In this document: piece by piece, positions 11,186-60,900 of the stretch
Numbering within the stretch: position 1 is the first letter of the stretch
Layout of the letters: every line of letters begins with the position of its first letter
Assembly: GCA_964016885.1 (NCBI GenBank)
Contig: OZ024742.1
Span: forward strand, 20,646,001-20,710,000
DNA from: Eledone cirrhosa
Taxonomy: Eukaryota
Reading direction: 5' to 3'
DNA: 64,000 nt
The notes under the pieces: generated by a model
Told to the model about the DNA's origin: nothing
The model's database searches: none
The model's input: the letters and a program-made list of their open reading frames with translations, nothing else
Position numbers and translations under genes: made by a program

Positions 11186-11428
11186 TGAAATTTTAGTTGT
11201 AAATTAATTTTATAATTTTCTTATTTTACGTCTCTCATATTATTTTTCTGCATCCCCATGCATTGAACTACAAAGTTACTAAGAGAAAACCTATATATTT
11301 GCTAGCATAAGTATGCATCTGTGTATATATGTTACTAGATATACTAATTCTTTATATATATATATACAAAGAATGAAAGAGAGAAGGAACAAAAGAAGGT
11401 GATAGAGATTGTGAACAGGCATGAGAGG

Positions 11429-13473: not shown

Positions 13474-16400
13474 CTACAGGATGGTATACAGAGAAGGCCC
13501 ATTTACACGAGCCATTCTCGCCACTATCACCCACCTTTCATAAAACTGCCTGTGGCCAAGCACCTCTCTCTCCATTCTTATCCTTCTTCCGAAGTGATAT
13601 CGGAAGAAGTAGACCAGACTATGGCCAGAGAGGAAGTTGCCTGACCTCAGACCTTTCAATCGTGTCCACCAAACAACCTCTTTCAACATGGCTATTACGC
13701 ACAGAAAAACCGCCTTTGCTTCCTTTGTGAAGAGGGGAGGCGGTTTGATTGTCATCACGGACTCGGCTGTCAATTTAATCGGCGCCACCCGCGACAGCAG
13801 TTGTTCGGCGTAGCCCCACAGATCAGCCACGCCCGGACATTGCACCAATGCGTGCGCCACGGTTTCTTCGTGACGCACGCATCTAGGGCAAATCTTTTTT
13901 GAGGGATCCCTGCCCGGGCGCCCGTGTCTGTAGAGCCTCTCTCGAACGGGTAGAGCCCCCCGGTAGCACTGCCAGGCCAGTGACTTCTGGAAGTTGTCCA
14001 TTGGTCCTGGGCCGAAAGTCCTACCGAACAGGCTGGCCAGTTCGTCTTCTTCCATGTCCAGCGACTCTCCAAGGGTGTCATCGCCCCTGCTAGCCACCAG
14101 CCCTCTATAGAATGATGAGGTGGATTCTCCACCGATGGCCCGGCCCGCTTGCCAGAGAGCCCTGAGCGCCTGAGCACACTCAGTGTGCCAGTCTCCCAGT
14201 TTTCCGGATCTTTGCTTGACCCAGGACTGTAGCTCGGTGAGTGAGACGAGTCTCGGAAAGGCTCGTTTCACGAACGGAGCCCACACCGGTTGACCAGTGA
14301 GGAATACCTGTAGGTGCCGTAGCCTTAATGCGTGCCTACGCATCATCAACCACGGCATCCCCAGCCCTCCTTTCGAAGGTTGTTGGCAGCAGATGGATCT
14401 TCTCACCATAGGAGGACGCTTCTTCCAAAGAAATTGGAAGAGCATGCGTTCCATGGTGGTGAGTGTTTCCTTAGGGCAAGGCACGACAGTCAGGCGGTAG
14501 TAAGTGACGGACGCTATGTAAATGTTCGCCACCTCCGCCCGGCCTTTTAGGGACAGCTTACACTTGGCCCATTTCTGGGTTAGTGCAAACACCTTGTTCG
14601 TAACCTCGTTCCAGTTCTTTTCCACCTGGAGGTCCGGTCCAAACCAGACCCCAAGCAACTTTACCGGGCCCTCCGTCCAGTGTCCGACGACACCATCGGG
14701 AGGCATCGGTCTGCCTCTCCACGTTCCGAGTTGCAGCCCGATGGATTTTTCCCGGTTCAGTTTCGCTCCTGACAACCTTTCGTACTCCTCCAGTAAGGTA
14801 CCGATCGCCTCGATCTCCGAGTCGGTTGATACCATTACTGTTACGTCATCGGCGTAGGCCGACACCGCTTTGCTCAATCCTGGTTCCAGGGGGATACCCT
14901 GCAACAACTCCAACTTCCTCAGTAAAGGCTCGAGAGTCAATACGTACAGAAGGGAGGAGAGAGGGCACCCCTGTCGAATGGATCGTGTGATTTCGAACGG
15001 CTTCGAAAGGTAGCCGTTCACCTTGATCCTAGAACAGATGTGGTTGCTATGTAGGGCAGTGATCCAGCCTCTGAAAACAGGACCGAACCCAGCCGCCGCT
15101 AGCACCGCATCCAGGTAACCATGGTCGACCCTATCGAAGGCCTTAGACTGATCCAAGTTGATCAGGGCCCCACCGAAGCCGGGTTTGTTGCCAACCCTCT
15201 CTATGATGTATCGCATGAGGTGGAGGTTATCGTGAATGGACCTGGATGGGATAGCACATGTCTGCGCATCTCCCACCAGGCCACCCACGACAAGCGCCAA
15301 CCTCTTTGCTAACACCTTGGCCAAAATCTTTAACTCTGTGTTTAGCAGGGTTATGGGCCGAAAATTATTTATACTATCCCCCTTGTTCTCGTCCTTCCTC
15401 ACCAGCGTGACTACGCCCTTGGCTACAGAACAAGGAATTCTCCCGTTCTGCTGCCAATTGCAGTAGACCGCTTCGAGGAGTTCGGAGAAGAAGACCGGCA
15501 TTGCTAAATAAAGTTCGTAAGGTATACCATCGAGACCTGGAGATTTGCGTCTGCTGCATTGGCTCAGCGCATCTCCGATCTCATCAGCCGAGATTGGTCC
15601 CTCGCAGGACTCCGCCTCTTTGTTCGAGAGACGCGGCAGGCCGTCGAGGTATGGACCGAAATTCACGCCCCGGCCCGGACCCTCGCCTCCCCCGAACAAT
15701 CGGGCAAAGTGCTTTTGAAAGGCCTCGCACATCTGCTTAGGCTCCCGGATCACTCGTCCATCTTCGTCTTGCAACGACCGGATGGTGGATCGATTTCCAC
15801 TTTTAGCTTCTGTCACGCGGGCCCATCCAACGGCTTTGGCCCCCTCATTACCTAGAGCACGTATTTTACTTCGAATGACGCAGCCTTCATGCTTTGCATC
15901 GAAAAACTGGTTCAAGGCCGTCCTCGATGCCAGCACTCTGGCCACATCTTCGCTCTTGATTGCCTCTTCTAATTTACCTGTTAATTCTTTCTCGTTTCTA
16001 TTCCTATTGGCAGCTAACATCTTGCTATAGCTTATTGATTCTGTTCTAATCTCTCTTTTGAGAGATGCCCACCATCGGTTGTTGACGATTGCACCCGTCA
16101 ACCTCTCCTTAACTAATCTGCTAATCCGGTTTCTGTAAGTCTCTTTTGCCGGTAAAGACAAATTAAGTTTCCAGTAACCGGGACCCTGTCTATGTGTTTT
16201 CTCGAGATTGACCACGCAGGTCACTAATTTGTGATCCGTGTAGCCAACCGTGCGCATTTCTGGACAGCTTAATATGTCCCTATCCTTACTTCTAACTAAG
16301 AATCTATCTAAGTACGATCTAGATTGACCACTGTGGTTTCTCCAAGTCCAGGTAGGCACAGTTGGAAAATCTAGTCGATATCTATCGACCAAGTTAAAAC

Positions 16401-16911
16401 GGTCGAGTAACCCCTTGAGGCTGTTACACCCCCCTCTATTAGGACATGCTCCTGCATAGTCCCAACGTGCATCTAGGATGTCATTCCAATCCCCCGCTAG
16501 AAGCAGGGAACGCGACGTTCCCAGAAAAGTCTCCAAACGCTGGAAGAAGTCGGGCCGTTCAGCTCCGAAAGGGGAGTAGACGGCGACCAGTCTCAAGGCC
16601 GCACTTTCACTACTGCCAACGTCTAGCACCAACAAACGACCCTCCGGGTCCGAGTGCACAACCTGTACGGCAAGACCCAGGTGTTTTTGCAGCAGCACGA
16701 CAACCCCACCCCCACCTCCAGGTTGACAGAGAGATGCATGCACCTCAAAGTCATCGAAGGTGGGGGCCAGCTGCCGCATGACGCTGATTCGAGTCTCACA
16801 GATAACCATTACATTTATACTACATGACCTGAGGTCATTTAGAAGCTTTGCTTGCTTCCAAGTTGAGCCCAGGCCACGTGCATTCAAACATCCTACTCTT
16901 AACACATCCAT
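13474..16911 (-). CDS. LINE ORF2p: APE endonuclease, reverse transcriptase and C-terminal zinc-finger domain (1145 aa)
   Basis: APE motifs LNARG, ICET, GDWN, YLDRF, TDH; RT motifs KSPGLDG, FRPITLLN, LDQSKAFDRV, RQGCPLS, YADD; C-terminal CPRC...ETVAHALVQC. Confidence 0.96.
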   Translation of the reverse strand: MDVLRVGCLNARGLGSTWKQAKLLNDLRSCSINVMVICETRISVMRQLAPTFDDFEVHASLCQPGGGGGVVVLLQKHLGLAVQVVHSDPEGRLLVLDVGSSESAALRLVAVYSPFGAERPDFFQRLETFLGTSRSLLLAGDWNDILDARWDYAGACPNRGGCNSLKGLLDRFNLVDRYRLDFPTVPTWTWRNHSGQSRSYLDRFLVRSKDRDILSCPEMRTVGYTDHKLVTCVVNLEKTHRQGPGYWKLNLSLPAKETYRNRISRLVKERLTGAIVNNRWWASLKREIRTESISYSKMLAANRNRNEKELTGKLEEAIKSEDVARVLASRTALNQFFDAKHEGCVIRSKIRALGNEGAKAVGWARVTEAKSGNRSTIRSLQDEDGRVIREPKQMCEAFQKHFARLFGGGEGPGRGVNFGPYLDGLPRLSNKEAESCEGPISADEIGDALSQCSRRKSPGLDGIPYELYLAMPVFFSELLEAVYCNWQQNGRIPCSVAKGVVTLVRKDENKGDSINNFRPITLLNTELKILAKVLAKRLALVVGGLVGDAQTCAIPSRSIHDNLHLMRYIIERVGNKPGFGGALINLDQSKAFDRVDHGYLDAVLAAAGFGPVFRGWITALHSNHICSRIKVNGYLSKPFEITRSIRQGCPLSSLLYVLTLEPLLRKLELLQGIPLEPGLSKAVSAYADDVTVMVSTDSEIEAIGTLLEEYERLSGAKLNREKSIGLQLGTWRGRPMPPDGVVGHWTEGPVKLLGVWFGPDLQVEKNWNEVTNKVFALTQKWAKCKLSLKGRAEVANIYIASVTYYRLTVVPCPKETLTTMERMLFQFLWKKRPPMVRRSICCQQPSKGGLGMPWLMMRRHALRLRHLQVFLTGQPVWAPFVKRAFPRLVSLTELQSWVKQRSGKLGDWHTECAQALRALWQAGRAIGGESTSSFYRGLVASRGDDTLGESLDMEEDELASLFGRTFGPGPMDNFQKSLAWQCYRGALPVRERLYRHGRPGRDPSKKICPRCVRHEETVAHALVQCPGVADLWGYAEQLLSRVAPIKLTAESVMTIKPPPLFTKEAKAVFLCVIAMLKEVVWWTRLKGLRSGNFLSGHSLVYFFRYHFGRRIRMEREVLGHRQFYERWVIVARMARVNGPSLYTIL

Positions 16912-16944
16912 GTGGGCGGCAGAGCCAAAGGAGAGTGTAGAGAC

Positions 16945-18633
16945 CTACCTTTCCGCTTCCCGGGGTTCGGGTTGCACGACTTCCATGGGGTCGGGGGTGT
17001 TGGGTGAAGGGGTGTCTTGTGGTGGTGTGGGGTCGTCGGTGTGTGGTGGGGTTGGGGTGTTTGGAGTTGTGTTGGGGAGGGGAAGGGGAGGGGGAAAGCT
17101 TTTTAGTAGGACGCGGTTTATGGGTTTGACAGAGGGTGGTCCTACGTCCTCCTTAAAATCCTTTTTTAGTTTTTGGTAGAGGTTCATTGGGATTTTTATT
17201 AGTTTTAAATGTGGGTGGTTTTCTGATGAAACAAAGTTTACACCTTCGGTTTGTACCGAAGGATTATTGTATATGAGTTCATTTAATTTATTATTGTTTC
17301 TGTTGATGTAAGTATAGTGTAATGTCTTTTTTTCCGATGGTGTGAGTGTTTCGAAGAGGGGAGGGGCAGGTTTGGTTTTGTTTGTTGCTGGAGGGGTGTT
17401 TTCTGTTTTGTTAGATTGTGTTGCGATTTGGGTGGGGGTTGTTTGTCCTTGTGTGTTTTGCACATGTTTTCTTTTTTTCCTTTTAATCTGTCTGAAGGAC
17501 TCCGTTTCTTCCTCCGAATTCGTTGGGTTATCTTCAGTGTTGGAGGGAAGAGGTATGTTTGCTGGTAATGTTTCCGTGTTGGTTTTCTTTGTGGGGGAGA
17601 TGGATGTCACTATGTTAGACTGTGTTGTGTGTTGTGTCTGCGGTGGTTGTGTTGTTTTATTGAGTGAGAGGTTGGGTGGGCCTGTATTTTGTTTTGGGGT
17701 AATGTGTTGTGACTGTTTGTGTTGTGGTGGTGTTGTGGTGTTACTGAGGGACGGGTTGGGTGGGACTGAGTTTTGTTGTTTGTTTATCTGTTGTGGTGGT
17801 GGTGGTGGAGCTGGTGTTGGTAGCAGGGTTTTCTTTTTGTTGAGTTGGGGACAAGCGGCCTTCAGGTGCCCTCTGCCTGCACAGATATGGCAGGACGGCC
17901 TTCTCCCCTCCACGCTAATGTTTATATACCCGTGGTCCTCTAATAGGATTCTGTCGGGTATTTGGGCGATGCGTTCAGGCTTCATTTGTACTACCAGCTC
18001 TATACCTGTTCCACTGAACGCATTGCCTGTGGTTTTCCCAATGGAAATCACGTTGTCATTCACTGGATCGATGAAGCCAGCTATGAGCCAGCAGTAGTCC
18101 ACATCTGGCATCATTGCATCCAGCCATATGCGTTGAGTTTTTTTCCCCATATAAGATGGATAAAAGGTGAAATTTTTCGAACGAATCGGTGACAAAGCAC
18201 ATTTTTTTGCCGCCGATTCGTTCTTCATGATAATTGCTAGGCTTCCATACAGTCTGTCTTTTCTTATGAAAGTTGTTTCATTCAGTACTTCTGCGAGTAC
18301 TGTTTTGATATCTGCTTGAGAAGGCTGTTCAGGTTTTTTTGTACTGTTGTTGATGGTCCGAAACTTGACCGTTCGGCTTTCAATGTCTTTCGTGAATTCT
18401 TGAGGCATTTTTACCAATAAAATACCATTCTCACCTTCACTTATGTATTGTTTTGCGTCCGTGATCCTTCGTACCACATCTGAAATGTTTTCCGCTATAT
18501 AAGTCAAAGATTTCTTTGTTTTCTGTGCAAAAGAAATCTTGTCGTCTGCTTTGTTTTCTGATATTATGTTATTTTCAACTGTTATTTTTTTGTTTGTTGT
18601 GTCTTTGTTTGTGTTATTAGTATTGTCATGCAA
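16945..18633 (-). CDS. LINE ORF1p, gag-like with CCHC zinc knuckle (562 aa)
   Basis: CHICAGRGHLKAAC knuckle, Pro/Thr-rich region and basic KRKKRK; lies immediately upstream of ORF2; homologues at 38580-40466 and 58206-59165. Confidence 0.9.
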   Translation of the reverse strand: MHDNTNNTNKDTTNKKITVENNIISENKADDKISFAQKTKKSLTYIAENISDVVRRITDAKQYISEGENGILLVKMPQEFTKDIESRTVKFRTINNSTKKPEQPSQADIKTVLAEVLNETTFIRKDRLYGSLAIIMKNESAAKKCALSPIRSKNFTFYPSYMGKKTQRIWLDAMMPDVDYCWLIAGFIDPVNDNVISIGKTTGNAFSGTGIELVVQMKPERIAQIPDRILLEDHGYINISVEGRRPSCHICAGRGHLKAACPQLNKKKTLLPTPAPPPPPQQINKQQNSVPPNPSLSNTTTPPQHKQSQHITPKQNTGPPNLSLNKTTQPPQTQHTTQSNIVTSISPTKKTNTETLPANIPLPSNTEDNPTNSEEETESFRQIKRKKRKHVQNTQGQTTPTQIATQSNKTENTPPATNKTKPAPPLFETLTPSEKKTLHYTYINRNNNKLNELIYNNPSVQTEGVNFVSSENHPHLKLIKIPMNLYQKLKKDFKEDVGPPSVKPINRVLLKSFPPPLPLPNTTPNTPTPPHTDDPTPPQDTPSPNTPDPMEVVQPEPREAER

Positions 18634-19148
18634 TTTTTCAAATTTTTTTTTTTCGTTGTTTTCGTCATTTAATTTTTTTTTCCTCCGCAGATTCGTCCGT
18701 TTTTATTTTCATTTTTCCTTCCTTCTCTATGACGTTAGTTGGGAAGGAAGGGAGGACTAAAGCGTGCGAGCTTACAACTCTTACCGCTGTCCCCCCACCA
18801 CTATTTTCGTTCGCTGCGTTTAACATTTCTGTTAGACGATTGAAATTTTTTACACAAAATTTTTTAAAACAGGTTTTTCACCTCTAGGAGGGGTAAAGAT
18901 GAGCTGACCCACCGCCTGACAGTTCAGACGGAGGGTCAAGCTACACAATTGTATCAAAATTAAGTTTGAACTCACAAAATTTCCTCAATAAATTTGAACA
19001 AAACTTCTGTGCGAAGTGAATGACATCCACACTGTAGAACAGACGACAGCTAGATTGACACATATATATAGATAGATGTGTAGTTAGGTATGTATGTATG
19101 TATGTATGTATGTATGTATGTATGTATGTATGTATGTATGTATGTATG

Positions 19149-21172: not shown

Positions 21173-21630
21173 CAAAGAGATATTTTCCAACATAATATAT
21201 TTAACAAAAGTCACATCAAAATCTTCTCTGATATTCTTATCTACAATTGTATTTTATCGGATAATCTCCTAAAGTAAATACTCGTTAATGTATTTCATCT
21301 TGTATATATGTGTTCCTGCTTCACATCATATAACCTTTCTCTTGTATACTGGTGGGAAGATCGATAAGTATAGGTCAATCTATCAAATACTAGAACTAAT
21401 GGTATTTTATTTCATTCCGATCCCTACAGATATCAAATCATTCCGTGTTGTGTTTTGCTATGTGTAAGCAGCATCTAATCTATGATTAGAGATGCAGGCA
21501 CCAAGTTCACAGGTATATTAGGATAATACAGATAATATTAATAATTCGAACAATATTCCAGCCTAATGCTTTCCATATAGCAATTGAGGATTCGCAGAAC
21601 ACTTTTTTCTGGTATTAGCAAATACTTATG

Positions 21631-21664
<34 letters not shown>

Positions 21665-21862
21665 TATTAGGTATAGGATTATCCAAGATGTAGTAATGGT
21701 TAATTACTACACTGGATATGGTTGACGTACGGTAAGAGGTTACTCTACGAGTTATGGAAGAATTGTTGAAGAAACTTAGTTCCTGATCCTTCTGTATTCC
21801 GGAGTGTATATAATGAATGAATAATAACAGGTAGACATCATAAAAGGGTAATTTATTCCGTG

Positions 21863-21974
21863 TGCTTACAAGTGTTTCCACGGTGGTACTACAGCCTAGT
21901 TATGCTATGTGCAAATTCACAAGTACTTGCAGAACTCAAATATCCAATGCTGTGACCACTGTTTCCTCAGAGCA
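21863..21974 (-). ncRNA. Type I hammerhead with extended stem II in the PLE 3' UTR
   Basis: Minus strand: UGCU-CUGAGGA-A-ACAGUGGUCACAGC...GCUGUAGUACCACCGU-G-GAAA-CACUUG-UA-AGCA; GUA triplet. Confidence 0.75.
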
Positions 21975-22464
21975 GAATGGTAAAATGTACAATGTAAATA
22001 CCCTTAAGTGGGGTTGTTGGGGAAGATAGAGTAGAAAAGGAAGAGAGAAAAGTAGGGGAGAGGGAGAGATAGAGAAAGATATGCAGAGGCTGGAGAAGTA
22101 GGAGAGAGTGGTTTGTAGATATCTTAATCAAAATGTTATGGTAGGGGTTTTATTATACTGGTTACTTTTGGAGAGATGCGTTGATAGTTAAGGTCGGAAT
22201 TATTTATTGCCCCAGATGGCAGGTTCATAGATGTTGAGAGGGAGGTAGGCCAAAGGCAAGAGACAGAGAGTGTAATGGATGTAGAGAGAGAGGTAGAGAA
22301 GGGACAGACGAAGTTTGTGTGGTGAGTGAACTTTGGGTTTGTAGTAGTAATCTAGGAATTGCACTGAGTTACCATTTATAGTGATAAGCAGTGTATTGTC
22401 TTGTAGTGTGGGGGTAAGAGGAGGTGGTTAGCTAGAAAGCGGGTTATAGTTACGGGTTCGAATG

Positions 22465-23080
<616 letters not shown>

Positions 23081-23081
23081 C

Positions 23082-23126
<45 letters not shown>

Positions 23127-23871
23127 GATAATTTAATATATCTACTAACATAAGCGCACAGATGTATGCTATTGCCAGCAAATACACAGGTTATGTCATA
23201 GTACCTAGGTGGTTCAATGCAGGAGAATGCAGAACAATAATATATAAGACGTAAAATAAGAAAATTTCTTAAAAAAAAATTGTTTCTAAAAAATTAACTT
23301 ACTTACTTAAATGTTCACTCCAACTAATTAGTTTCTGCAATGGGATAAAGAGAGTTACGTAATGAACTGTTGAGAATTTCATTGCGTCATCAGGGTGGTC
23401 ATTCTCAGCCGAGTCTCCAGGCGATGCGCGGACACTGGGGACTCATATAAAAATAATAATAATTCGGCAACTGGAACAGCTATCGAGGACTGGATTCCAG
23501 CTACTGAAAATTCTCACTGCCACTGATCATATGGCCGATTCTAAAGAATCAATCACGTGACACAGAGGCTAGTCAGTAGGAATGGGATGGTAAGATGACA
23601 GACGCCTACTAACACCCCCCAAAAAAATTTAGAAGTGGTTTTGGCAGGTTTGCTCGACAAATCAGTGATTTGAAAATAAATATAGATAATGTAATATATC
23701 TACTAACATAAGCGCACAGATGTACGCTAATGCCAGCAAATACACAGGTTATGTCATAGTACCTAGGTGGTTCAATGCAGGAGAGTGCAGAACAATAATA
23801 TATAAGACGTAAAATAAGAAAATTTCTTAAAAAAAAATTTTTTCTACAAAATTAACTTACTTAAATTTTCA

Positions 23872-23951
23872 CTCCAACTAATTAGTTTCTGCAATAGGAT
23901 AAAGACAGTTACGTAATGAACTGTTGAGAATTTCATTGCGTCATCAGGGAG
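23872..23951 (-). ncRNA. Variant type I hammerhead, representative of one per 557-bp monomer
   Basis: Plus strand CTCCAACTAATTAGTTTCTGCAAT...CATTGCGTCATCAGGGAG recurs in the units. Confidence 0.7.
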
Positions 23952-26900
23952 GTCATTCTCAGCCGAGTCTCCAGGCGATGCGCGGACACTGGGGACTCAT
24001 ATAAAAATAATAATAATTCGGCAACTGGAACAGCTATCGAGGACTGGATTCCAGCCACTGAAAATTCTCACTGCCACTGATCATATGGCCGATTCTAAAG
24101 AATCAATCACGTGACACAGAGGCTAGTCAGTAGGAATGGGATGGTAAGATGACAGACGCCTACTAACACCCCCAAAAAAATTTAGAAGTGGTTTTGGCAG
24201 GTTTGCTCGACAAATCAGTGATTTGGAGATAAATATAGATAATTTAATATATCTACTAACATAAGCGCACAGATGTACGCTAATGCCAGCAAATACACAG
24301 GTTATGTCATAGTACCTAGGTGGTTCAATGCAGGAGAATGCAGAACAATAATATATAAGACGTAAAATAAGAAGATTTCTTAAAAAAAATTTTTTCCTAA
24401 AAAATTAACTTACTTACTTAAATTTTCACTCCAACTAATTAGTTTCTGCAATGGGATAAAGAGAGTTACGTAATGAACTGTTGAGAATTTCATTGCGTCA
24501 TCAGGGAGGTCATTCTCAGCCGAGTCTCCAGGCGATGCGCGGACACTGGGGACTCATATAAAAATAGTAATAATTCGGCAACTGGAACAGCTATCGAGGA
24601 CTGAATTCCAGCCACTGAAAATTCTCACTGCCACTGATCATATGGCCGATTCTAAAGAATCAATCACGTGACACAGAGGCTAGTCAGTAGGAATGGGATG
24701 GTAAGATGACAGACGCCTACTAACACCCCCCAAAAAAATTTAGAAGTGGTTTTGGCAGGTTTGCTCGACAAATCAGTGATTTGGAGATAAATATAGATAA
24801 TTTAATATATCTACTAACATAAGCGCACAGATGTACGCTAATGCCAGCAAATACACAGGTTATGTCATAGTACCTAGGTGGTTCAATGCAGGAGAGTGCA
24901 GAACAATAATATATAAGACGTAAAATAAGAAAATTTCTTAAAAAAAAATTTTTTCTACAAAATTAACTTACTTAAATTTTCACTCCAACTAATTAGTTTC
25001 TGCAATAGGATAAAGACAGTTACGTAATGAACTGTTGAGAATTTCATTGCGTCATCAGGGAGGTCATTCTCAGCCGAGTCTCCAGGCGATGCGCGGACAC
25101 TGGGGACTCATATAAAAATAATAATAATTCGGCAACTGGAACAGCTATCGAGGACTGGATTCCAGCCACTGAAAATTCTCACTGCCACTGATCATATGGC
25201 CGATTCTAAAGAATCAATCACGTGACACAGAGGCTAGTCAGTAGGAATGGGATGGTAAGATGACAGACGCCTACTAACACCCCCAAAAAAAATTAGAAGT
25301 GGTTTTGGCAGGTTTGCTCGACAAATCAGTGATTTGGAGATAAATATAGATAATTTAATATATCTACTAACATAAGCGCACAGATGTACGCTAATGCCAG
25401 CAAATACACAGGTTATGTCATAGTACCTAGGTGGTTCAATGTAGGAGAATGCAGAACAATAATATATAAGACGTAAAATAAGAAGATTTCTTAAAAAAAA
25501 TTTTTTTCTAAAAAATTAACTTACTTACTTAAATTTTCACTCCAACTAATTAGTTTCTGCAATGGGATAAAGAGAGTTACGTAATGAACTGTTGAGAATT
25601 TCATTGCGTCATCAGGGAGGTCATTCTCAGCCGAGTCTCCAGGCGATGCGCGGACACTGGGGACTCATATAAAAATAGTAATAATTCGGCAACTGGAACA
25701 GCTATCGAGGACTGAATTCCAGCCACTGAAAATTCTCACTGCCACTGATCATATGGCCGATTCTAAAGAATCAATCACGTGACACAGAGGCTAGTCAGTA
25801 GTAATGAGATGGTAAGATGACAGACGCCTACTAACACCCCCCAAAAAAATTTAGAAGTGGTTTTGGCAGGTTTGCTCGACAAATCAGTGATTTGGAGATA
25901 AATATAGATAATTTAATATATCTACTAACATAAGCGCACAGATGTACGCTAATGCCAGCAAATACACAGGTTATTTCATAGTACCTAGGTGGTTCAATGC
26001 AGGAGAATGCAGAACAATAATATATAAGACGTAAAATAATAAAATGTCTTAAAAAAAATTTTTTTCTAAAAAATTAACTTACTTACTTAAATTTTCACTC
26101 CAACTAATTAGTTTCTGCAATGGGATAAAGAGAGTTACGTAATGAACTGTTGAGAATTTCATTGCGTCATCAGGGAGGTCATTCTCAGCCGAGTCTCCAG
26201 GCGATGCGCGGACACTGGGGACTCATATAAAAATAATAATAATTCGGCAACTGGAACAGCTATCGAGGACTGGATTCCAGCCACTGAAAATTCTCACTGC
26301 CACTGATCATATGGCCGATTCTAAAGAATCAATCACGTGACACAGAGGCTAGTCAGTAGGAATGGGATGGTAAGATGACAGACGCCTACTAACACCCCCA
26401 AAAAAATTTAGAAGTGGTTTTGGCAGGTTTGCTCGACAAATCAGTGATTTGGAGATAAATATAGATAATTTAATATATCTACTAACATAAGCGCACAGAT
26501 GTACGCTAATGCCAGCAAATACACAGGTTATGTCATAGTACCTAGGTGGTTCAATGCAGGAGAATGCAGAACAATAATATATAAGACGTAAAATAAGAAG
26601 ATTTCTTAAAAAAAATTTTTTCCTAAAAAATTAACTTACTTACTTAAATTTTCACTCCAACTAATTAGTTTCTGCAATGGGATAAAGAGAGTTACGTAAT
26701 GAACTGTTGAGAATTTCATTGCGTCATCAGGGAGGTCATTCTCAGCCGAGTCTCCAGGCGATGCGCGGACACTGGGGACTCATATAAAAATAGTAATAAT
26801 TCGGCAACTGGAACAGCTATCGAGGACTGAATTCCAGCCACTGAAAATTCTCACTGCCACTGATCATATGGCCGATTCTAAAGAATCAATCACGTGACAC

Positions 26901-29900
26901 AGAGGCTAGTCAGTAGGAATGGGATGGTAAGATGACAGACGCCTACTAACACCCCCCAAAAAAATTTAGAAGTGGTTTTGGCAGGTTTGCTCGACAAATC
27001 AGTGATTTGGAGATAAATATAGATAATTTAATATATCTACTAACATAAGCGCACAGATGTACGCTAATGCCAGCAAATACACAGGTTATGTCATAGTACC
27101 TAGGTGGTTCAATGCAGGAGAGTGCAGAACAATAATATATAAGACGTAAAATAAGAAAATTTCTTAAAAAAAAATTTTTTCTACAAAATTAACTTACTTA
27201 AATTTTCACTCCAACTAATTAGTTTCTGCAATAGGATAAAGACAGTTACGTAATGAACTGTTGAGAATTTCATTGCGTCATCAGGGAGGTCATTCTCAGC
27301 CGAGTCTCCAGGCGATGCGCGGACACTGGGGACTCATATAAAAATAATAATAATTCGGCAACTGGAACAGCTATCGAGGACTGGATTCCAGCCACTGAAA
27401 ATTCTCACTGCCACTGATCATATGGCCGATTCTAAAGAATCAATCACGTGACACAGAGGCTAGTCAGTAGGAATGGGATGGTAAGATGACAGACGCCTAC
27501 TAACACCCCCAAAAAAAATTAGAAGTGGTTTTGGCAGGTTTGCTCGACAAATCAGTGATTTGGAGATAAATATAGATAATTTAATATATCTACTAACATA
27601 AGCGCACAGATGTACGCTAATGCCAGCAAATACACAGGTTATGTCATAGTACCTAGGTGGTTCAATGTAGGAGAATGCAGAACAATAATATATAAGACGT
27701 AAAATAAGAAGATTTCTTAAAAAAAATTTTTTTCTAAAAAATTAACTTACTTACTTAAATTTTCACTCCAACTAATTAGTTTCTGCAATGGGATAAAGAG
27801 AGTTACGTAATGAACTGTTGAGAATTTCATTGCGTCATCAGGGAGGTCATTCTCAGCCGAGTCTCCAGGCGATGCGCGGACACTGGGGACTCATATAAAA
27901 ATAGTAATAATTCGGCAACTGGAACAGCTATCGAGGACTGAATTCCAGCCACTGAAAATTCTCACTGCCACTGATCATATGGCCGATTCTAAAGAATCAA
28001 TCACGTGACACAGAGGCTAGTCAGTAGTAATGAGATGGTAAGATGACAGACGCCTACTAACACCCCCCAAAAAAATTTAGAAGTGGTTTTGGCAGGTTTG
28101 CTCGACAAATCAGTGATTTGGAGATAAATATAGATAATTTAATATATCTACTAACATAAGCGCACAGATGTACGCTAATGCCAGCAAATACACAGGTTAT
28201 TTCATAGTACCTAGGTGGTTCAATGCAGGAGAATGCAGAACAATAATATATAAGACGTAAAATAATAAAATGTCTTAAAAAAAATTTTTTTCTAAAAAAT
28301 TAACTTACTTACTTAAATTTTCACTCCAACTAATTAGTTTCTGCAATGGGATAAAGAGAGTTACGTAATGAACTGTTGAGAATTTCATTGCGTCATCAGG
28401 GAGGTCATTCTCAGCCGAGTCTCCAGGCGATGCGCGGACACTGGGGACTCATATAAAAATAATAATAATTCGGCAACTGGAACAGCTATCGAGGACTGGA
28501 TTCCAGCCACTGAAAATTCTCACTGCCACTGATCATATGGCCGATTCTAAAGAATCAATCACGTGACACAGAGGCTAGTCAGTAGGAATGGGATGGTAAG
28601 ATGACAGACGCCTACTAACACCCCCAAAAAAATTTAGAAGTGGTTTTGGCAGGTTTGCTCGACAAATCAGTGATTTGGAGATAAATATAGATAATTTAAT
28701 ATATCTACTAACATAAGCGCACAGATGTACGCTAATGCCAGCAAATACACAGGTTATGTCATAGTACCTAGGTGGTTCAATGCAGGAGAATGCAGAACAA
28801 TAATATATAAGACGTAAAATAAGAAGATTTCTTAAAAAAAATTTTTTCCTAAAAAATTAACTTACTTACTTAAATTTTCACTCCAACTAATTAGTTTCTG
28901 CAATGGGATAAAGAGAGTTACGTAATGAACTGTTGAGAATTTCATTGCGTCATCAGGGAGGTCATTCTCAGCCGAGTCTCCAGGCGATGCGCGGACACTG
29001 GGGACTCATATAAAAATAGTAATAATTCGGCAACTGGAACAGCTATCGAGGACTGAATTCCAGCCACTGAAAATTCTCACTGCCACTGATCATATGGCCG
29101 ATTCTAAAGAATCAATCACGTGACACAGAGGCTAGTCAGTAGGAATGGGATGGTAAGATGACAGACGCCTACTAACACCCCCCAAAAAAATTTAGAAGTG
29201 GTTTTGGCAGGTTTGCTCGACAAATCAGTGATTTGGAGATAAATATAGATAATTTAATATATCTACTAACATAAGCGCACAGATGTACGCTAATGCCAGC
29301 AAATACACAGGTTATGTCATAGTACCTAGGTGGTTCAATGCAGGAGAGTGCAGAACAATAATATATAAGACGTAAAATAAGAAAATTTCTTAAAAAAAAA
29401 TTTTTTCTACAAAATTAACTTACTTAAATTTTCACTCCAACTAATTAGTTTCTGCAATAGGATAAAGACAGTTACGTAATGAACTGTTGAGAATTTCATT
29501 GCGTCATCAGGGAGGTCATTCTCAGCCGAGTCTCCAGGCGATGCGCGGACACTGGGGACTCATATAAAAATAATAATAATTCGGCAACTGGAACAGCTAT
29601 CGAGGACTGGATTCCAGCCACTGAAAATTCTCACTGCCACTGATCATATGGCCGATTCTAAAGAATCAATCACGTGACACAGAGGCTAGTCAGTAGGAAT
29701 GGGATGGTAAGATGACAGACGCCTACTAACACCCCCAAAAAAATTTAGAAGTGGTTTTGGCAGGTTTGCTCGACAAATCAGTGATTTGGAGATAAATATA
29801 GATAATTTAATATATCTACTAACATAAGCGCACAGATGTACGCTAATGCCAGCAAATACACAGGTTATGTCATAGTACCTAGGTGGTTCAATGTAGGAGA

Positions 29901-32900
29901 ATGCAGAACAATAATATATAAGACGTAAAATAAGAAGATTTCTTAAAAAAAATTTTTTTCTAAAAAATTAACTTACTTACTTAAATTTTCACTCCAACTA
30001 ATTAGTTTCTGCAATGGGATAAAGAGAGTTACGTAATGAACTGTTGAGAATTTCATTGCGTCATCAGGGAGGTCATTCTCAGCCGAGTCTTCAGGCGATG
30101 CGCGGACACTGGGGACTCATATAAAAATAGTAATAATTCGGCAACTGGAACAGCTATCGAGGACTGAATTCCAGCCACTGAAAATTCTCACTGCCACTGA
30201 TCATATGGCCGATTCTAAAGAATCAATCACGTGACACAGAGGCTAGTCAGTAGTAATGGGATGGTAAGATGACAGACGCCTACTAACACCCCCCAAAAAA
30301 ATTTAGAAGTGGTTTTGGCAGGTTTGCTCGACAAATCAGTGATTTGGAGATAAATATAGATAATTTAATATATCTACTAACATAAGCGCACAGATGTACG
30401 CTAATGCCAGCAAATACACAGGTTATTTCATAGTACCTAGGTGGTTCAATGCAGGAGAATGCAGAACAATAATATATAAGACGTAAAATAATAAAATGTC
30501 TTAAAAAAAATTTTTTTCTAAAAAATTAACTTACTTACTTAAATTTTCACTCCAACTAATTAGTTTCTGCAATGGGATAAAGAGAGTTACGTAATGAACT
30601 GTTGAGAATTTCATTGCGTCATCAGGGAGGTCATTCTCAGCCGAGTCTCCAGGCGATGCGCGGACACTGGGGACTCATATAAAAATAATAATAATTCGGC
30701 AACTGGAACAGCTATCGAGGACTGGATTCCAGCCACTGAAAATTCTCACTGCCACTGATCATATGGCCGATTCTAAAGAATCAATCACGTGACACAGAGG
30801 CTAGTCAGTAGGAATGGGATGGTAAGATGACAGACGCCTACTAACACCCCCCAAAAAAATTTAGAAGTGGTTTTGGCAGGTTTGCTCGACAAATCAGTGA
30901 TTTGGAGATAAATATAGATAATTTAATATATCTACTAACATAAGCGCACAGATGTACGCTAATGCCAGCAAATACACAGGCTATGTCATAGTACCTAGGT
31001 GGTTCAATGCAGGAGAGTGCAGAACAATAATATATAAGACGTAAAATAAGAAAATTTCTTAAAAAAAATTTTTTTCTACAAAATTAACTTACTTACTTAA
31101 ATTTTCACTCCAACTAATTAGTTTCTGCAATAGGATAAAGACAGTTACGTAATGAACTGTTGAGAATTTCATTGCGTCATCAGGGAGGTCATTCTCAGCC
31201 GAGTCTCCAGGCGATGCGCGGACACTGGGACTCATATAAAAATAATAATAATTCGGCAACTGGAACAGCTATCGAGGACTGAATTCCAGCCACTGAAAAT
31301 TCTCACTGCCACTGATCATATGGCCGATTCTAAAGAATCAATCACGTGACACAGAGGCTAGTCAGTAGGAATGGGATGGTAAGATGACAGACGCCTACTA
31401 ACACCCCCGAAAAAAATCTAGAAGTGGTTTTGGCAGGTTTGCTCGACAAATCAGTAATTTGGAGATAAATATAGATAATTTAATATATCTACTAACATAA
31501 GCGCACAGATGTACGCTAATGCCAGCAAATACACAGGTTATGTCATAGTACCTAGGTGGTTCAATGCAGGAGAATGCAGAACAATAATATATAAGACGTA
31601 AAATAAGAAGATTTCTTAAAAAAAATTTTTTTCTAAAAAATTAACTCACTTACTTAATTTTTCACTCCAACTAATTAGTTTCTGCAATGGGATAAAGAGA
31701 GTTACGTAATGAACTGTTGAGAATTTCATAGCGTCATCAGGGAGGTCATTCTCAGCCGAGTCTCCAGGCGATGCGCGGACACTGGGGACTCATATAAAAA
31801 TAATAATAATTCGGCAACTGGAACAGCTATCGAGGACTGAATTCCAGCCACTGAAAATTCTCACTGCCACTGATCATATGGCCGATTCTAAAGAATCAAT
31901 CACGTGACACAGAGGCTAGTCAGTAGGAATGGGATGGTAAGATGACAGACGCCTACTAACACCCCCCAAAAAAATTTAGAAGTGGTTTTGGCAGGTTTGC
32001 TCGACAAATCAGTGATTTGGAGATAAATATAGATAATTTAATATATCTACTAACATAAGCGCACCGATGTACGCTAATGCCAGCAAATACACAGGTTCTG
32101 TCATAGTACCTAGGTGGTTCAATGCAGGAGAATACAGAACAATAATATATAAGACGTAAAATAAGAAAATGTCTTAAAAAAAATTTTTTTCTAAAAAATT
32201 AACTTACTTACTTAAATTTTCACTCCAACTAATTAGTTTCTGCAATGGGATAAAGAGAGTTACGTAATGAACTGTTGAGAATTTCATTGCGTCATCAGGG
32301 AGGTCATTCTCAGCCGAGTCTCCAGGCGATGCGCGGACACTGGGGACTCATATAAAAATAATAATAATTCGGCAACTGGAACAGCTATCGAGTACTGGAT
32401 TCCAGCCACTGAAAATTCTCACTGCCACTGATCATATGGCCGATTCTAAAGAATCAATCACGTGACACAGAGGCTAGTCAGTAGGAATGGGATGGTAAGA
32501 TGACAGACGCCTACTAACACCCCCCCAACAAAATTTAGAAGTGGTTTTGGCAGGTTTGCTCGACAAATCAGTGATTTGGAGATAAATATAGATAATTTAA
32601 TATATCTACTAACATAAGCGCACAGATGTATGCCAGCAAATACACAGGTTATGTCATAGTACCTAGGTGGTTCAATGCAGGAGAGTGCAGAACAATAATA
32701 TATAAGACGTAAAATAAGAAAATTTCTTAAAAAAAATTTTTTTCTAAAAAATTAACTTACTTACTTAAATTTTCACTCCAACTAATTAGTTTCTGCAATG
32801 GGATAAAGAGAGTTACGTAATGAACTGTTGAGAATTTCATTGCGTCATCAGGGAGATCATTCTCAGCCGAGTCTCCAGGCGATGCGCGGACACTGGGGAC

Positions 32901-33884
32901 TCATATAAAAATAATAATAATTCGGCAACTGGAACAGCTATCGAGAACTGGATTCCAGCCACTGAAAATTTTCACTGCCACTGATCATATGGCCGATTCT
33001 AAAGAATCAATCACGTGACACAGAGGCTAGTCAGTAGGAATGGGATGGTAAGATGACAGACGCCTACTAACACCCCCCAAAAAAATCTAGAAGTGGTTTT
33101 GGCAGGTTTGCTCGACAAATCAGTGATTTGGAGATAAATATAGATAATTTAATATATCTACTAACATAAGCGCACAGATGTACGCTAATGCCAGCAAATA
33201 CACAGGTTATGTCATAGTACCTAGGTGGTTCAATGCAGGAGAATGCAGAACAATAATATATAAGACGTAAAATAAGAAAATGTCTTAAAAAAAAATTTTT
33301 TCTAAAAAATTAACTTACTTACTTAAATTTTCACTCCAACTAATTAGTTTCTGCAATGGGATAAAGAGAGTTACGTAATGAACTGTTGAGAATTTCATTG
33401 CGTCATCAGGGAGGTCATTCTCAGCCGAGTCTCCAGGCGATGCGCGGACACTGGGGACTCATATAAAAATAATAATAATTCGGCAACTGGAACAGCTATC
33501 GAGGACTGGATTCCAGCCACTGAAAATTCTCACTGCCACTGATCATATGGCCGATTCAATCACGTGACACAGAGGTTAGTCAGTAGGAATGGGATGGTAA
33601 GATGACAGACGCCTACTAACACCCCCAAAAAATATTTAGAAGTGGTTTTGGCAGGTTTGCTCGACAAATCAGTGATTTGGAGATAAATATAGATAATTTA
33701 ATATATCTACTAACATAAGCGCACAGATGTACGCTATTCTTTAGAATCGGCCATATGATCAGTGGCAGTGAGAATTTTCAGTGGCTGGAATCCAGTCCTC
33801 GATAGCTGTTCCAGTTGCCGAATTATTATTTTTATATGAGTCCCCAGTGTCCGCGCATCGCCTGGTGACTCGGCTGAGAATGAC

Positions 33885-33964
33885 CTCCCTGATGACGCAA
33901 TGAAATTCTCAACAGTTCATTACGTAACTCTCTATATCCCATTGCAGAAACTAATTAGTTGGAG
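33885..33964 (+). ncRNA. Variant type I hammerhead in the inverted monomer
   Basis: CTCC-CTGATGA-C-GCAATG-loop-CATTGC-A-GAAA-CTAATTAG-TT-GGAG. Confidence 0.72.
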
Positions 33965-35029
33965 TGAACATTTAAGTAAGTAAGTTAATTTTTTAGAAAA
34001 AAATTTTTTAAAGAAATTTTCTTATTTTACGTCTTATATATTATTGTTCTGCATTCTCCTGCATTGAACCACCTAGGTACTATGACATAACCTGTGTATT
34101 TGCTGGCATTAGCGTACATCTGTGCGCTTATGTTAGTAGATATATTAAATTATCTATATTTATCTCCAAATCACTGATTTGTCGAGCAAACCTGCCAAAA
34201 CCACTTCTAAATTTTTTTGGGGGGTGTTAGTAGGCGTCTGTCATCTTACCATCCCATTCCTACTGACTAGCCTCTGTGTCACGTGATTGATTCTTTAGAA
34301 TCGGCCATAAAATCCTAAATCAAATATCAGAAATTATAAATTAAAACATTAAGAAATTAACAATTAGAAATTAAAGAATTAAAATAAAAAAAATTCTTTT
34401 CAGGTGATAATTCGGATTGAGGTGAGTAAAAATATAGACTGAAGTGAGTAAATAATATGGAGAGAGATGTTTAAGTAATATGTTCTGAGAGGGATTCTAG
34501 TGTCACAGTTACTCTATCCACATATTGAACGACAGTGCCGTACATTATAACTGATTGAAAACTACTTGGCTCTAGGCATTAGTCAATCCATTACACAGTC
34601 ATAATTTCCATCACATGGAACAAAATCAAAGAAAAACAGACATAAAGTACACAAAAGAAAAGAACAGAACCAATAGTGAATAAATGCAAAAACACAGAGA
34701 ACATATATGCAAAATGAGCCATATGATTGTCCATCTGTCCATGTATAGATTGAATTGAGGGGGCTTCTGTTCAAATGCGATTTGGTGCAGGAAAATAGGG
34801 GTTTATCCTATTATTTGTTTCCGCGTATTTATCCTGCCGAAAGTTACTATTATGTCTGTCCAGTGTAAGGGGTTTCCATCCCCATGGTAGAGGGAATTTC
34901 CGGGGTAGCTTATGGTTGGTTCCTCTCTTCTCCACCATATCGGTTACATCGTAAAGCGCTCAACTAATTGAGTGTTTGAATTGAATTGCATCAATGTTTA
35001 CCCTAATATATATGTTTTCTATACCTTTC

Positions 35030-35105
<76 letters not shown>

Positions 35106-35130: not shown

Positions 35131-35312
35131 GATGAGATTCTACAGGACTAGAACTGTTTCATTCTTTAGAAATCATCAGGAATCTTGATGATTTCTAAAG
35201 AATGAAACAGTTCTAGTCCTGTAGAATCTCATCTATATTAGAACTTTTATAATCTGTAATGTATTGAGTACCTTACTTACTGTGGTTACCTCCGATTCAA
35301 CCCGGAATAACG
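35131..35312. mobile_element. PLE terminal fold-back: near-perfect palindrome (35131-35233) of an HHR core plus 3' tail
   Basis: Arm reads (C)TGATGA-TTTCTAAAGAAT-GAAA-CAGTTCTAG-TC-CTGTAG; related pieces at about 8805-8922, 37022-37065 and 61470-61512. Confidence 0.75.
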
Positions 35313-36684: not shown

Positions 36685-36790
36685 GTTCTGATGAATTGAC
36701 TGGTTATAACTATGTATTGATGATCGATTGATGCAGAAACATGCGGGCAGCGATCTCTAGACCTACCAGTTCAGAGAAACAATTGTCAGC
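36685..36790 (+). ncRNA. Type I hammerhead with a long stem II insertion
   Basis: GTT-CTGATGA-A-TTGACTGGT...ACCAGTTCAG-A-GAAA-CAATTG-TC-AGC; palindromic stem III and GUC triplet; stem I only 3 bp; flanked by (TA)n. Confidence 0.6.
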
Positions 36791-57919: not shown

Positions 57920-60900
57920 CAGTGTTTGTCTGTATTCTTACGTTATTGTGTTAATTAACCCCCTTGCCTGGGTCTTCGGACATTAGGGTTAATTTATTTC
58001 ACCCCTTTTGGGGTGAACATTTTCATTCTAAAAATCTTGTAATTGTCTCTACGCTAGTGGTAATGGAAGCCATTACCACAGGTAACGATGACACGCTCAC
58101 TAAACAAACTGAAGGAGAGCGGGTAGCGGAGGCAACAAGCCTCCCTACTGAAAGAAGATTATTAGAAACATTGAAAAAAATGGAGCCTAACCCTAATGAA
58201 AAAATGTGAAAAAAATTGACTCGGAAAAATTGCCAACATTAATGGATGCCGTTTTGACTTTTCACGGTGCCACGCCCACCAGCAAAGGTGAAAGAGAAGT
58301 AGTAGCTGTGATTACAAGTCTCTCAGATACTGAAAATAAAAGTGAACATTTTGAAAAAATGGAGTCTAACCCCAACTTTGAAAAAAATGGGAACGCATAC
58401 ACCAACATAAATAACACAAACACAACAAAAAATGAAAATTGTAACAACAAAAAACAAGAAAACAACCACATTTCTACAAATGTAAACAAAGAGGGGGCGA
58501 ACAAAATGACGTTCGCTCAAACTACGAAAAAAACCATTGTGTACGAATCTATTGACATTTCGAACATGGCCCAGCAAATGGAAAATGCACGGAAGTATAT
58601 AACTTTGGAAAATGCACGGAAGTATATAACTTTGGAGGACTTTGGAGGTCTATTTTCTTTAAATTCTCCCCCAGAGCTAAAAAAGGAAAATAGCTTAAAA
58701 ACTATTATTTATAGGACAATATCCAACAAAAGCCGTAAGCCAGTACAACTCACACAGACAGAGATTGAACTGGCTTTAAAAGATCATCTGAAAAACATTG
58801 TATTCATTCGGAAGGATAGACTCTACGTTATTTATAATAACAACTTAATAAAAACCGAAGGTTCGAATCTCGCCCAAGCAACGGGGCTTCCCCATCTAAA
58901 AATGATAAAAGCCCCAATGGACATTTACAAAACGTTAAAAGACACTTTTAAAGAGGACGTGCCCCCCCCACACCCCTGCGTCAGACCCATTAACCATATC
59001 CTCCTAAAAAAATCCCCCCCTCCCCAGACACCCACACAATTCCAAACACTACAATCCCACCACACACTGATGCCCCTACACTTCCACAAACCACCACCCC
59101 ACCCAACAACCCACCCCCACCCTCATGGAAATTGTGCGGCCCGGTCCCCGGGACGCAGAGAGGTAAGTGCCTTTTCTCTTTACCACCAACATGGCTGTGT
59201 TGAGAGTAGGTTGTCTAAATGCGCGTGGCCTGGGCTCACCTTGGAAGCAAGCAATGCTTCTAAATGACCTCAGGTCACGATGTATACATGTGATGGTTAT
59301 TTGCGAAGCCCGGATCAGCAGCGAGCGACAGCTGGCCCCTACCTTTGATGACTTTGAGATGCACGCATCTGTCTGTCAGCCCGTAGGTGGGGTGAGGTTG
59401 TCGTTCTGCTGCGAAAACATCTGGGTCTCGCTACACAGACGGTACACTTGGACCCGGAGGGTCGACTAGTGGTTCTGGACCTTCGCAGTGGTGAAGGCGG
59501 AGCTTTTAGGCTGGTCTCCGTCTACGGCCCTTTTGGGTCAACGCGACCGGACTTCTTCCATCGTCTGGAGACTTTTCTAGGGACGTCCCGCTCCTTGCTT
59601 TTAGTGGGGGACAGGAATGGTATCCTAGATGCACGTTGGGACTATGTATCGGCATTTCCTGATAGAAGGGGTTGTAACAGTCTCAAGGGGTTAATCGGCC
59701 GATTCGACCTGGCCGATAGATATCGACTAGATTTTCCGACTGTGCCAACCTGGACTTGGAGAAACCGCAACCGTCAATCTAGATCGTACCTAGATAGGTT
59801 CTTAGTTAGAAATAAGGATAGGGATTTTTTAAATTGCCCAGACGTAACAGAAATCGGGGAGATCGGCACCTTACTGGAGGAATCCGAAACGTTTACAGGG
59901 GCTAAGCTGAACCGGGACAAGTCAGTCGGTTTGCAACTCGGCGAGTGGAGGGGCAAACCGATGGCCTCCAACGGCGTCGTCGGACGTTGGATGGAGGGCC
60001 CGGTGAAGTTGGTCTGGTTCGAGCCAGACCTCCAGGTGGAGAAGAACTGGGGTGAGGTATCGAACAGGGTGTTTGCGCTGACGCAGAAGTGGGCTGAGGG
60101 CAAACTATCCCTGAAAGGTCGGGCGAAGGTGGCGAACACTTATATAGCGTCCGTCATCTATTACCGCCTGACCGTCGTGCCTTGCCCAAGGCAAACGCTC
60201 ACCAAATTGGAGCCAGCACTCTTCCAATTCCTTTGGAAGAAGCGGGCTCCTTTGGTGAGGAGATCCATCTGCTGTCAACACCCTTCGAAATGAGGGCTGC
60301 TGATGCGTAGACACGCATTAAGGCTACGGCACCTCCAGGTATTCCTCACTGGTCAACCGGTGTGGGCCCCGTTGGTGAGGCGAGCCTTTCCGAGACTCGT
60401 CTCGCTCACCGAGCTGCAGTCCTGGGTCAAGCAAAGACCGAGAAAACTGGGCGCCTGGCACACCGAGTGTGCCCAGGCGCTCACGGCTCTCTGGCAGGCG
60501 GACCCAGCTATCGGTGGAGACACCACCTCGTCATTCTATAGAGGGCTGGTGGTTAGTAGGTGTGACGACGCCCTCGGACAAGCCCTAGGCATGGAAGAAG
60601 ACGAACTGGCCAGCCTATTCGGGAGGAATTTGGCTCGGGACCTATTGACAACTTCCAGAGGTCCCTGGCCTGGCAGTGCTACCGAGGGGCGCTGCCCGTT
60701 CGAGAAAAGCTCTACAGACACGGGCGCCCGGGTAGGGACCCCTCGAAAAAAATTTGTCTCAGATGCGTGTGCGACGAGGAAACCGTTGCGCACTCTTTGG
60801 TACACTGCTCGGGCGTTGCCGATCTGTGGGGCTATGTCGAACGACTGCTGTCACGGGTGGAACCAATCCGGTTGACCACTGAGTCTATTGTAACGATAAA

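Follow-up and report, generated by a model that had tools for sequence, protein, structure and literature searches.

An 11-kb array of hammerhead-bearing 557-nt units in Eledone cirrhosa, probably one retrozyme insertion amplified in place

We analysed a 64,000-nt stretch of the Eledone cirrhosa genome (assembly GCA_964016885.1, contig OZ024742.1, positions 20,646,001 to 20,710,000; hereafter the window), which contains an 11-kb tandem array of 557-nt units with predicted hammerhead ribozymes. The evidence tips, with modest confidence, towards a single insertion of a non-LTR (long terminal repeat) retrozyme, written into a (TA)n tract by the machinery of a Penelope-like element (PLE) from a likely circular RNA and then amplified in place. 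Judged by its sequence, the array element has the characteristics of metazoan non-LTR retrozymes set out in PMC7229834; here and below, published work is cited for those passages of each source that deal with these elements. Little of this is surprising, since retrozymes as a class, their connection to PLEs and the model of their expansion have all been published; the separation of insertion from amplification is what this locus adds.

Array, ribozyme and dispersed family

A 20-nt anchor occurs 20 times on the plus strand at a spacing of 549–559 bp, which delimits 19 full units, and once in inverted orientation. This agrees with an earlier note, made from the sequence alone, that had described 19 tandem units with minus-strand hammerhead cores and a left end fused to (TA)n: the tract adjoins the sense arm directly, at the distal terminus of the family (q557; unit positions q1–q557 follow the reverse complement of window 25907–26463, with the predicted cut after q362). 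The single inverted unit that the note placed at the right end is indeed an inverted arm, joined to the sense arm with a 1-nt overlap, but it measures 1.03 units and ends non-canonically at q153, short of both family termini, against a piece of a third repeat family; its outer end was probably cut away by a later deletion. The longest ATG-initiated frame in the unit is 48 aa on either strand, GC content is below 50% and the family is without LTR structure. With thousands of dispersed copies besides, the proposed identity as a non-autonomous hammerhead retroelement is borne out. The genome-wide copy survey that the note had suggested gave 5,747 exact matches to the hammerhead pattern in the 3.0-Gb genome and none to its reversed control, and for this reason the observation is not a product of chance. 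Rfam at gathering thresholds returned no match anywhere in the window, and Tandem Repeats Finder missed the array because its period exceeds 500.

The hammerhead core, CUGAUGA...GAAACUAAUUAGUU, is present in 20/20 units, comprising all 19 sense units on the minus strand and the inverted arm. A descriptor scan of the array recovered 18 minus-strand hammerheads and one on the plus strand, the leftmost unit being missed because of a stem I change alone. The layout consists of a 4-bp stem I, CUGAUGA, a C.A mismatch, a 6-bp stem II, GAAA, a palindromic ACUAAUUAGU stem III and GUU, and stem II encloses a 37-nt insert with a second hairpin. The ACUAAUUAGU palindrome has a computed energy of +1.5 kcal/mol as a hairpin and −9.0 as a homodimer, values that fit dimeric cleavage of the kind described for metazoan and PLE ribozymes (PMC4209133). 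Pairs 2 and 5 of stem II are Watson-Crick in all 20 distinct sequences drawn from 30 matches, with three and two pair types, respectively; these changes represent a few subfamily-level events, not 20, and the covariation supports the predicted fold. The core is likewise intact in a 72%-identical relative within the window. A retained core and covarying stem II point to selection on the ribozyme across subfamilies.

Most hammerheads of the Hydra clade of PLEs have the same shape: stem I is short, a 1x1 mismatch sits at the foot of stem II, and stem III is palindromic (File S2, PMC8557442). Conservation of C and A at the mismatch is forced by the search pattern used; 340 further matches carry another base at the first mismatch position, which for the most part reflects an A.A subfamily and decay from C to T. 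We considered the C.A mismatch as a new ribozyme variant and rejected this, given C.A in PLE-X1_cBra, U.U in most Hydra families (File S2, PMC8557442) and U.U in an axolotl retrozyme (PMC7229834). In every unit, GAGAAU just upstream of stem I (26180–26186, minus) complements AUUCUC in the stem II internal loop (26152–26158, minus). The complementarity spans 5–7 bp in most subfamilies, with no compensatory change found, and could be a candidate pseudoknot of the type that aids fast cleavage (PMC3088659).

A search with the monomer gave 1,664 first-look candidates genome-wide, of which 39 were scored and 30 loci (L001–L030) fetched, with L019 left out as a duplicate of L018. Across 29 loci, 45/46 arms end at q444–446 (proximal) or q556–557 (distal) and the remaining one at q548. 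The two fixed sites lie 113 nt apart, 82 and 195 nt downstream of the predicted cut; the ends nearly always sit on (TA)n and the 5′ ends are scattered, the insertions being circularly permuted runs of units with random 5′ ends. Two head-to-head arms were found in 26 of 39 loci, with one arm per end site in 24; of the two exceptions, one has both arms proximal and the other (L133), left open by the script, reaches q444 by eye. The overlap at the head-to-head junction is 0–5 nt in 20 of these 26 loci. Arm length averages 725 bp (~1.3 units) and reaches 1,353 (46 arms, loci other than the array), values biased upward by the choice of loci containing a full unit or whole ribozyme.

The family thus bears the PLE insertion signature, namely a microsatellite target, an inverted 5′-truncated arm and alternative 3′ ends (the tail). 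This signature has been described as inverted 5′-truncated copies with a tail at one end (PMC8557442) and accounted for in vitro by two internal start sites used on both nicked strands (PMC11167929). None of 30 ribozyme matches on one chromosome arm (~21 insertions) was linked to an open reading frame (ORF) in its own unit. Within L001–L030, a (TC)n run precedes (TA)n at 7/25 distal versus 0/18 proximal ends, possibly through slippage when reverse transcription starts or through later microsatellite growth. A T-run/A-run hairpin (q385–415) varies between units of one insertion, with A runs turned into T runs (for example in L010, L021, L026 and L029), which suggests error-prone copying at a quasi-palindrome in each round.

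Insertion, amplification and competing explanations

The array differs from ordinary insertions in how its variants are distributed. At sites covered by at least three segments in ordinary multi-unit insertions, 10 variants occur in all units, 73 are private and one is common to a subset; the array has 12 variants common to subsets of units, in nested groups (homopolymer tracts and q368–399 were masked). Its 19 sense units sort into about five lineages, comprise 11 distinct unit types and diverge by ~1.35% on average. A 4-unit block occurs three times, such that 23907–27517 is identical to 26133–29743 across 3,611 bp, and the third block differs at 4 positions. The longest arm elsewhere has 5.2 units (L131) and includes a 2-unit duplication marked by 10 shared variants, and primary arms reach ~3.5 units (L098, L132), each of one haplotype. 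A long-array search, in which 26 of 2,534 candidates were scored, did not list the array itself and does not show that it ranks longest. Nested variants, the triplicated block and the short arms elsewhere therefore indicate a short founder, with most units later duplicates. All 20 units share the G398 form of the hypervariable T/A hairpin, and therefore descend from one founder template. This founder probably had between one and five sense units together with an inverted arm, and we infer unequal crossover as the amplification route, a later expansion already proposed for retrozymes (bioRxiv 10.64898/2026.07.22.740005). The expansion after insertion postulated by the earlier note thus stands, its use of array length as a sign of long rolling-circle synthesis does not, and ‘satellite DNA’ seems too strong a term for a single 11-kb locus, even one of 19 units with higher-order structure.

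Every array unit also departs from the family in stem II, with G332C, which breaks the inner hairpin, in 15/20 and C342T, which makes a G.U pair, in the other five. G332C has 19 matches in the genome, 15 in the array and four in single units of a different subfamily; its interpretation as a subfamily allele was rejected on these grounds. As no other copy of the array's own subfamily carries it, there are no detectable daughters, and the array seems to have reached a dead end. The exact 2.2-kb duplication may have arisen very recently, or it may be an error in the assembly. No RNA run was among those listed as carrying the family. Four sequencing runs of unspecified kind contain family sequence, and the private bases of the inverted arm read differently in essentially all covering contigs. 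No contig bridging the inversion junction was found among the run contigs listed, and the runs probably come from a different individual, or else from a relative.

Within one insertion, units and arms go back to a single template haplotype. At five polymorphic (subfamily-diagnostic) sites, segment pairs within a locus had the minor allele in common 26 times and were discordant once, compared with 141 versus 2,198 between loci. Segment pairs are not independent, and counted per locus, 14/15 informative loci were concordant, including 6/6 where opposite arms both cover the minor allele. No arm 5′ end lies within 5 nt of the cut site (q358–368; 0/65), and the surrounding region (q352–367) is unchanged in 88/92 segments, the other four having one 1-nt deletion and three substitutions. 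A linear cut monomer would yield at most 195 nt, since only 82 and 195 nt separate the two start sites from the cut upstream of them. Arms averaging 725 bp, the lack of stops at the cut and scarless crossings therefore indicate a template continuous across the cut site. Such a template would be either a ligated circle or an uncleaved multimer, the circle being the simpler reading and one already proposed for PLEs and retrozymes (PMC7229834; PMC4209133).

For a retrozyme insertion amplified in place, the course of events may be outlined as follows. Tandem copies would be transcribed and their hammerheads, probably dimeric through the palindromic stem III, would release monomers to be ligated into circles, as inferred from other retrozymes. 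A PLE protein would nick both (TA)n strands and prime at two internal sites, one per strand; the enzymology is conjectural, and the fixed ends and the rule of one arm per site are seen in genomic copies. Both cDNAs would run past the ribozyme junction to a random length and be joined head-to-head by 0–5 nt of microhomology, a pattern again seen in genomic copies. The short founder would then have been duplicated repeatedly at this site by recombination, latterly as the 4-unit block, and a later deletion likely took the outer end of the inverted arm. PLE mobilization and unequal-crossover expansion have both been proposed for retrozymes (PMC7229834; bioRxiv 10.64898/2026.07.22.740005). A more tentative proposal, to which we give somewhat less than even weight, is that a dimeric Hydra-PLE enzyme copies one circular ribozyme RNA twice simultaneously, from two fixed start sites 113 nt apart, one per nicked strand of a (TA)n target. 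If so, the tail, inversions and partial tandems of PLE insertions would have a single explanation, valid both for the 557-nt parasite and for the autonomous element of 3.2 kb; long retrozyme arrays would be decaying by-products of DNA recombination, not master copies.

Several observations weigh against the favoured account of a retrozyme insertion amplified in place. The 0/65 count of 5′ ends at the cut is a weak test, given that a uniform null expects ~1.3. Private G332C is present in the inverted arm yet not in five of the sense units, which needs gene conversion or reversion. In a monomer, the hammerhead region of the array is not predicted to adopt the active shape at its energy minimum (−8.6 constrained versus −11.3 kcal/mol; z +1.24), and eight of nine predicted Xenopus retrozyme dimers failed to cleave in vitro (bioRxiv 10.64898/2026.07.22.740005). 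The earlier note had made its case depend on a core better conserved than its flanks; this is so between subfamilies, but within the family the core changes at 8/816 sites (0.98%) against 231/26,884 (0.86%) in the flanks, an equality expected if copies decay neutrally after insertion. The monomer matches neither of the two Hydra families compared, except for a 13-nt AT-rich motif located at its proximal end, and Naiad PLEs likewise target (TA)n (PMC8557442). Furthermore, in vitro work on the PLE PAc found unprocessed RNA to be the main template for insertion, and mutating the ribozyme did not lower insertion (PMC11167929).

This last result favours the most serious rival, in which the template is an uncleaved linear multimeric transcript of a young tandem copy, the ribozyme serves another step and local amplification proceeds in the same way. 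The predicted monomer fold, which disfavours an active ribozyme, points in the same direction, and a young source has identical units, such that shared haplotypes and scarless junctions would fit too. We nevertheless consider it less likely: rare alleles are shared by the units of one insertion 28 times within loci, most easily if one unit was recopied, single-haplotype arms of 3–3.5 units (L098, L132) require long homogeneous sources, and subfamilies have kept both the core and stem II. The earlier note had also raised repeated template jumps, here between linear ribozyme-cut monomers, as the origin of multimers. Insertion in pieces longer than a unit was upheld, but jumps, although known in other retroelement reverse transcriptases, are very improbable, with no pile-up of 5′ ends at the cut (0/65) and no scars among 92 crossings beyond a 1-nt deletion and three substitutions.

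A comparably slight chance attaches to a strong form of the earlier note's proposal, with all 19 units coming from a single rolling-circle run and diverging later. The single G398 hairpin form, and hence one founder template, would suit such a run, as would published retrozyme arrays spanning 62 to 300 units (bioRxiv 10.64898/2026.07.22.740005; PMC7229834). The 12 nested subset-shared variants contradict it unless conversion alone made them, and the triplicated 4-unit block with its exact repeat, as well as primary arms elsewhere of at most ~3.5 units (the 5.2-unit L131 itself holding a 2-unit duplication), argue in the same sense. Partial assembly artefact, with the 2,226-bp block written twice and a true count of ~15 units, is a minority view that deserves rather more credence and is compatible with a retrozyme insertion amplified in place. 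It draws on the 3,611 bp without any difference at lag 2,226, set against the average divergence between array units, but a very recent duplication would look alike; the divergent third block and the 11 unit types show that the array as such is real. Lastly, it is scarcely credible that the monomer originated as the terminal repeat (pLTR) of the PLE copy next to it and was amplified beside this parent. Both share strand, (TA)n tract, hammerhead-like motifs and two 3′ ends, yet comparison with six long copies from that PLE family found no similarity to the monomer (best E 0.07). The adjacent fragment is moreover a complete 5′-truncated insertion with TA on both sides, and Hydra ORF pieces of other families lie at four other retrozyme loci in a genome with 57,744 endonuclease candidates.

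These results bear on how retrozymes are mobilized and on why PLE insertions are tandem, inverted and tailed. With its young copies in the thousands, two precisely placed start sites and a single haplotype in each insertion, the family yields concrete predictions for an in vitro assay, and a 785-aa Hydra-clade frame in the same genome provides a protein for such an assay. The locus separates two processes that are often merged, with retrotransposition giving few units and DNA-level duplication building the long array; array length is therefore no evidence for rolling-circle reverse transcription.

Neighbouring elements and other repeats in the window

Table 1. Coordinates of the array, its ribozymes and adjoining elements (window positions).
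Feature	Position	Strand	Description
Sense arm	23127..33737	minus	19 tandem 549–559-bp units and a ~45-nt 5′ piece
Inverted head-to-head arm	33737..34309 (start 33737/33738)	plus	q135–557, then q1–153
4-unit higher-order repeat, 3 copies	24238..30916	minus	lag 2,226 bp
Representative type I hammerhead (predicted)	26098..26177	minus	predicted cut after GUU at 26102
Inverted-arm hammerhead (predicted)	33885..33964	plus	predicted cut after 33960
(TA)n tract	22923..23126		landing site common to array and PLE fragment
Hydra-clade PLE copy, separate, 5′-truncated	21668..22922	minus	C-terminal GIY-YIG (22468–22922) and 3′ untranslated region
Third hammerhead-bearing repeat family, truncated head-to-head insertion	34310..35032		~1.3-kb period

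The PLE endonuclease remnant that the earlier note had placed across the (TA)n tract was confirmed by a GIY-YIG match at 22468–22923 on the minus strand (Pfam PF01541, E 5.3e-05, above cut-off). The fragment is a 1,255-bp insertion with its own hammerhead-like motif in the 3′ untranslated region (21970–21867) and its distal 3′ end on (TA)n at 21627–21667. Its family is young (96–98% identity), has 2,818 candidates and displays a two-end inverted pattern (q1116/q1255, ends 139 nt apart) plus an upstream pLTR; the distal end lies 199 nt past the predicted cut, compared with 195 in the retrozyme. Hydra-clade PLEs are defined by a single ORF with C-terminal GIY-YIG, RWK, DKT, CxCX5C, CxxC and CxH (PMC8557442). 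One copy of the family (L061) has an open 785-aa frame with RWK, DKT, YRDD, a CxCX5C linker, CxxC, CxH and C-terminal GIY-YIG, and the family shows both (TA)n insertion and a hammerhead in the pLTR, features of that clade. Pfam matched neither reverse transcriptase nor GIY-YIG in this frame at E 0.1, and the clade assignment therefore rests on motifs. L061:3138–6667 is apparently a full-length Hydra-clade PLE, a pLTR with a 3.18-kb unit, and a candidate protein source for in vitro work. A Naiad-type endonuclease was rejected, as the C-terminal position and motifs are those of Hydra.

The link to this endonuclease piece that the earlier note implied did not survive: the fragment is an independent insertion without detectable similarity to the monomer. 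Because Hydra pieces flank other retrozyme loci and candidates are so numerous, the adjacency reflects a common target. Hydra-type machinery would still be the best candidate mobilizer, judging by target, end geometry and ribozyme type; the partner comparison covers two Hydra families, with at least five further ones looked at in part. On the other side of the array, the piece of the third family has neither its own ribozyme nor its left terminus here and is unrelated to the 557-bp unit. The inverted arm (q153) meets this mid-element piece at a 2-nt TA overlap, and in the simplest reading one deletion took the outer ends of both.

Further repeats occur elsewhere in the window. At 382–2832, a second hammerhead family is laid out like the array, with 4.2 tandem 467-bp units (minus), an inverted arm and (TA)n at both ends; its hammerhead has a short ACUAGU palindrome, and the base of stem II is a canonical G-C. 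At 10033–11345 lies a head-to-head insertion of a related 521-bp unit (~72% identical to the 557-bp one), with proximal and distal ends. The near-perfect palindrome on (TA)n at 35131–35240, with a minus-strand hammerhead core, probably represents two very short opposite arms of another family. Further hammerhead-like motifs from the descriptor scan, at 36688–36787 (+), 47729–47798 (+) and 8389–8322 (−), probably mark the ends of further PLEs or retrozymes. Two long open frames (1,156 and 585 aa) at 13474–18702 (−) resemble a two-ORF long interspersed nuclear element (LINE) with endonuclease and reverse transcriptase, possibly L1/Tx1-like, and a broken relative lies at 58200–60946. A 4.7-kb degenerate (TA)n region at 50488–55237 has repeated non-TA islands, which suggests local segmental duplication of ~1.7 kb, and five tandem 93-bp units, 94% alike, occupy 7485–7948 within an open frame.

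Comparison with known systems

The open literature yielded no paper on cephalopod retrozymes or on a rule of one end per arm in retrozymes; subscription journals lay outside this coverage. Like the non-LTR retrozymes described in PMC7229834 and bioRxiv 10.64898/2026.07.22.740005, the family is built of tandem units that are non-coding and carry a single type I hammerhead apiece; it is dispersed as monomers to multimers, with GC below 50% and no LTR, primer-binding site or polypurine tract. The 557-nt unit falls within the 51–972 bp range of bioRxiv 10.64898/2026.07.22.740005 and is longer than the 170–400 nt retrozymes of PMC7229834. Unlike the retrozymes described there, it carries a PLE-type ribozyme with a long two-part stem II. 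Nor do the cited passages describe retrozymes that strictly target (TA)n, end at two fixed 3′ sites or have their arms arranged head-to-head. Expression, cleavage and circles have been demonstrated for published retrozymes (PMC7229834; bioRxiv 10.64898/2026.07.22.740005), whereas the 557-nt family is known here from its sequence.

With Hydra-clade PLEs (PMC8557442), the family shares (TA)n targets, partial-tandem and inverted insertions and the same hammerhead type; it differs in that its unit lacks an ORF and matches neither of the two Hydra families examined. The end spacing, 113 nt in the retrozyme and 139 nt in the adjacent PLE, contrasts with the 30–40-bp tail described for Hydra PLEs (PMC8557442). 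The behaviour of the Poseidon PLE PAc in vitro is also comparable, in that both strands are nicked and extended and two internal starts define the genomic tail (PMC11167929). However, PAc belongs to another clade and showed no strand difference in start site in vitro (PMC11167929), whereas opposite arms here almost always differ in site, and the start sites here lie in UA-rich motifs. Finally, the satellite 2-type repeats of newt and axolotl (PMC7229834) are also tandem hammerhead repeats; their ribozymes work better as dimers, and in one axolotl type the mismatch at the helix II base is U.U. Those repeats are very high-copy with demonstrated RNAs, whereas the array described here occupies a single 11-kb locus and its family is mostly dispersed.

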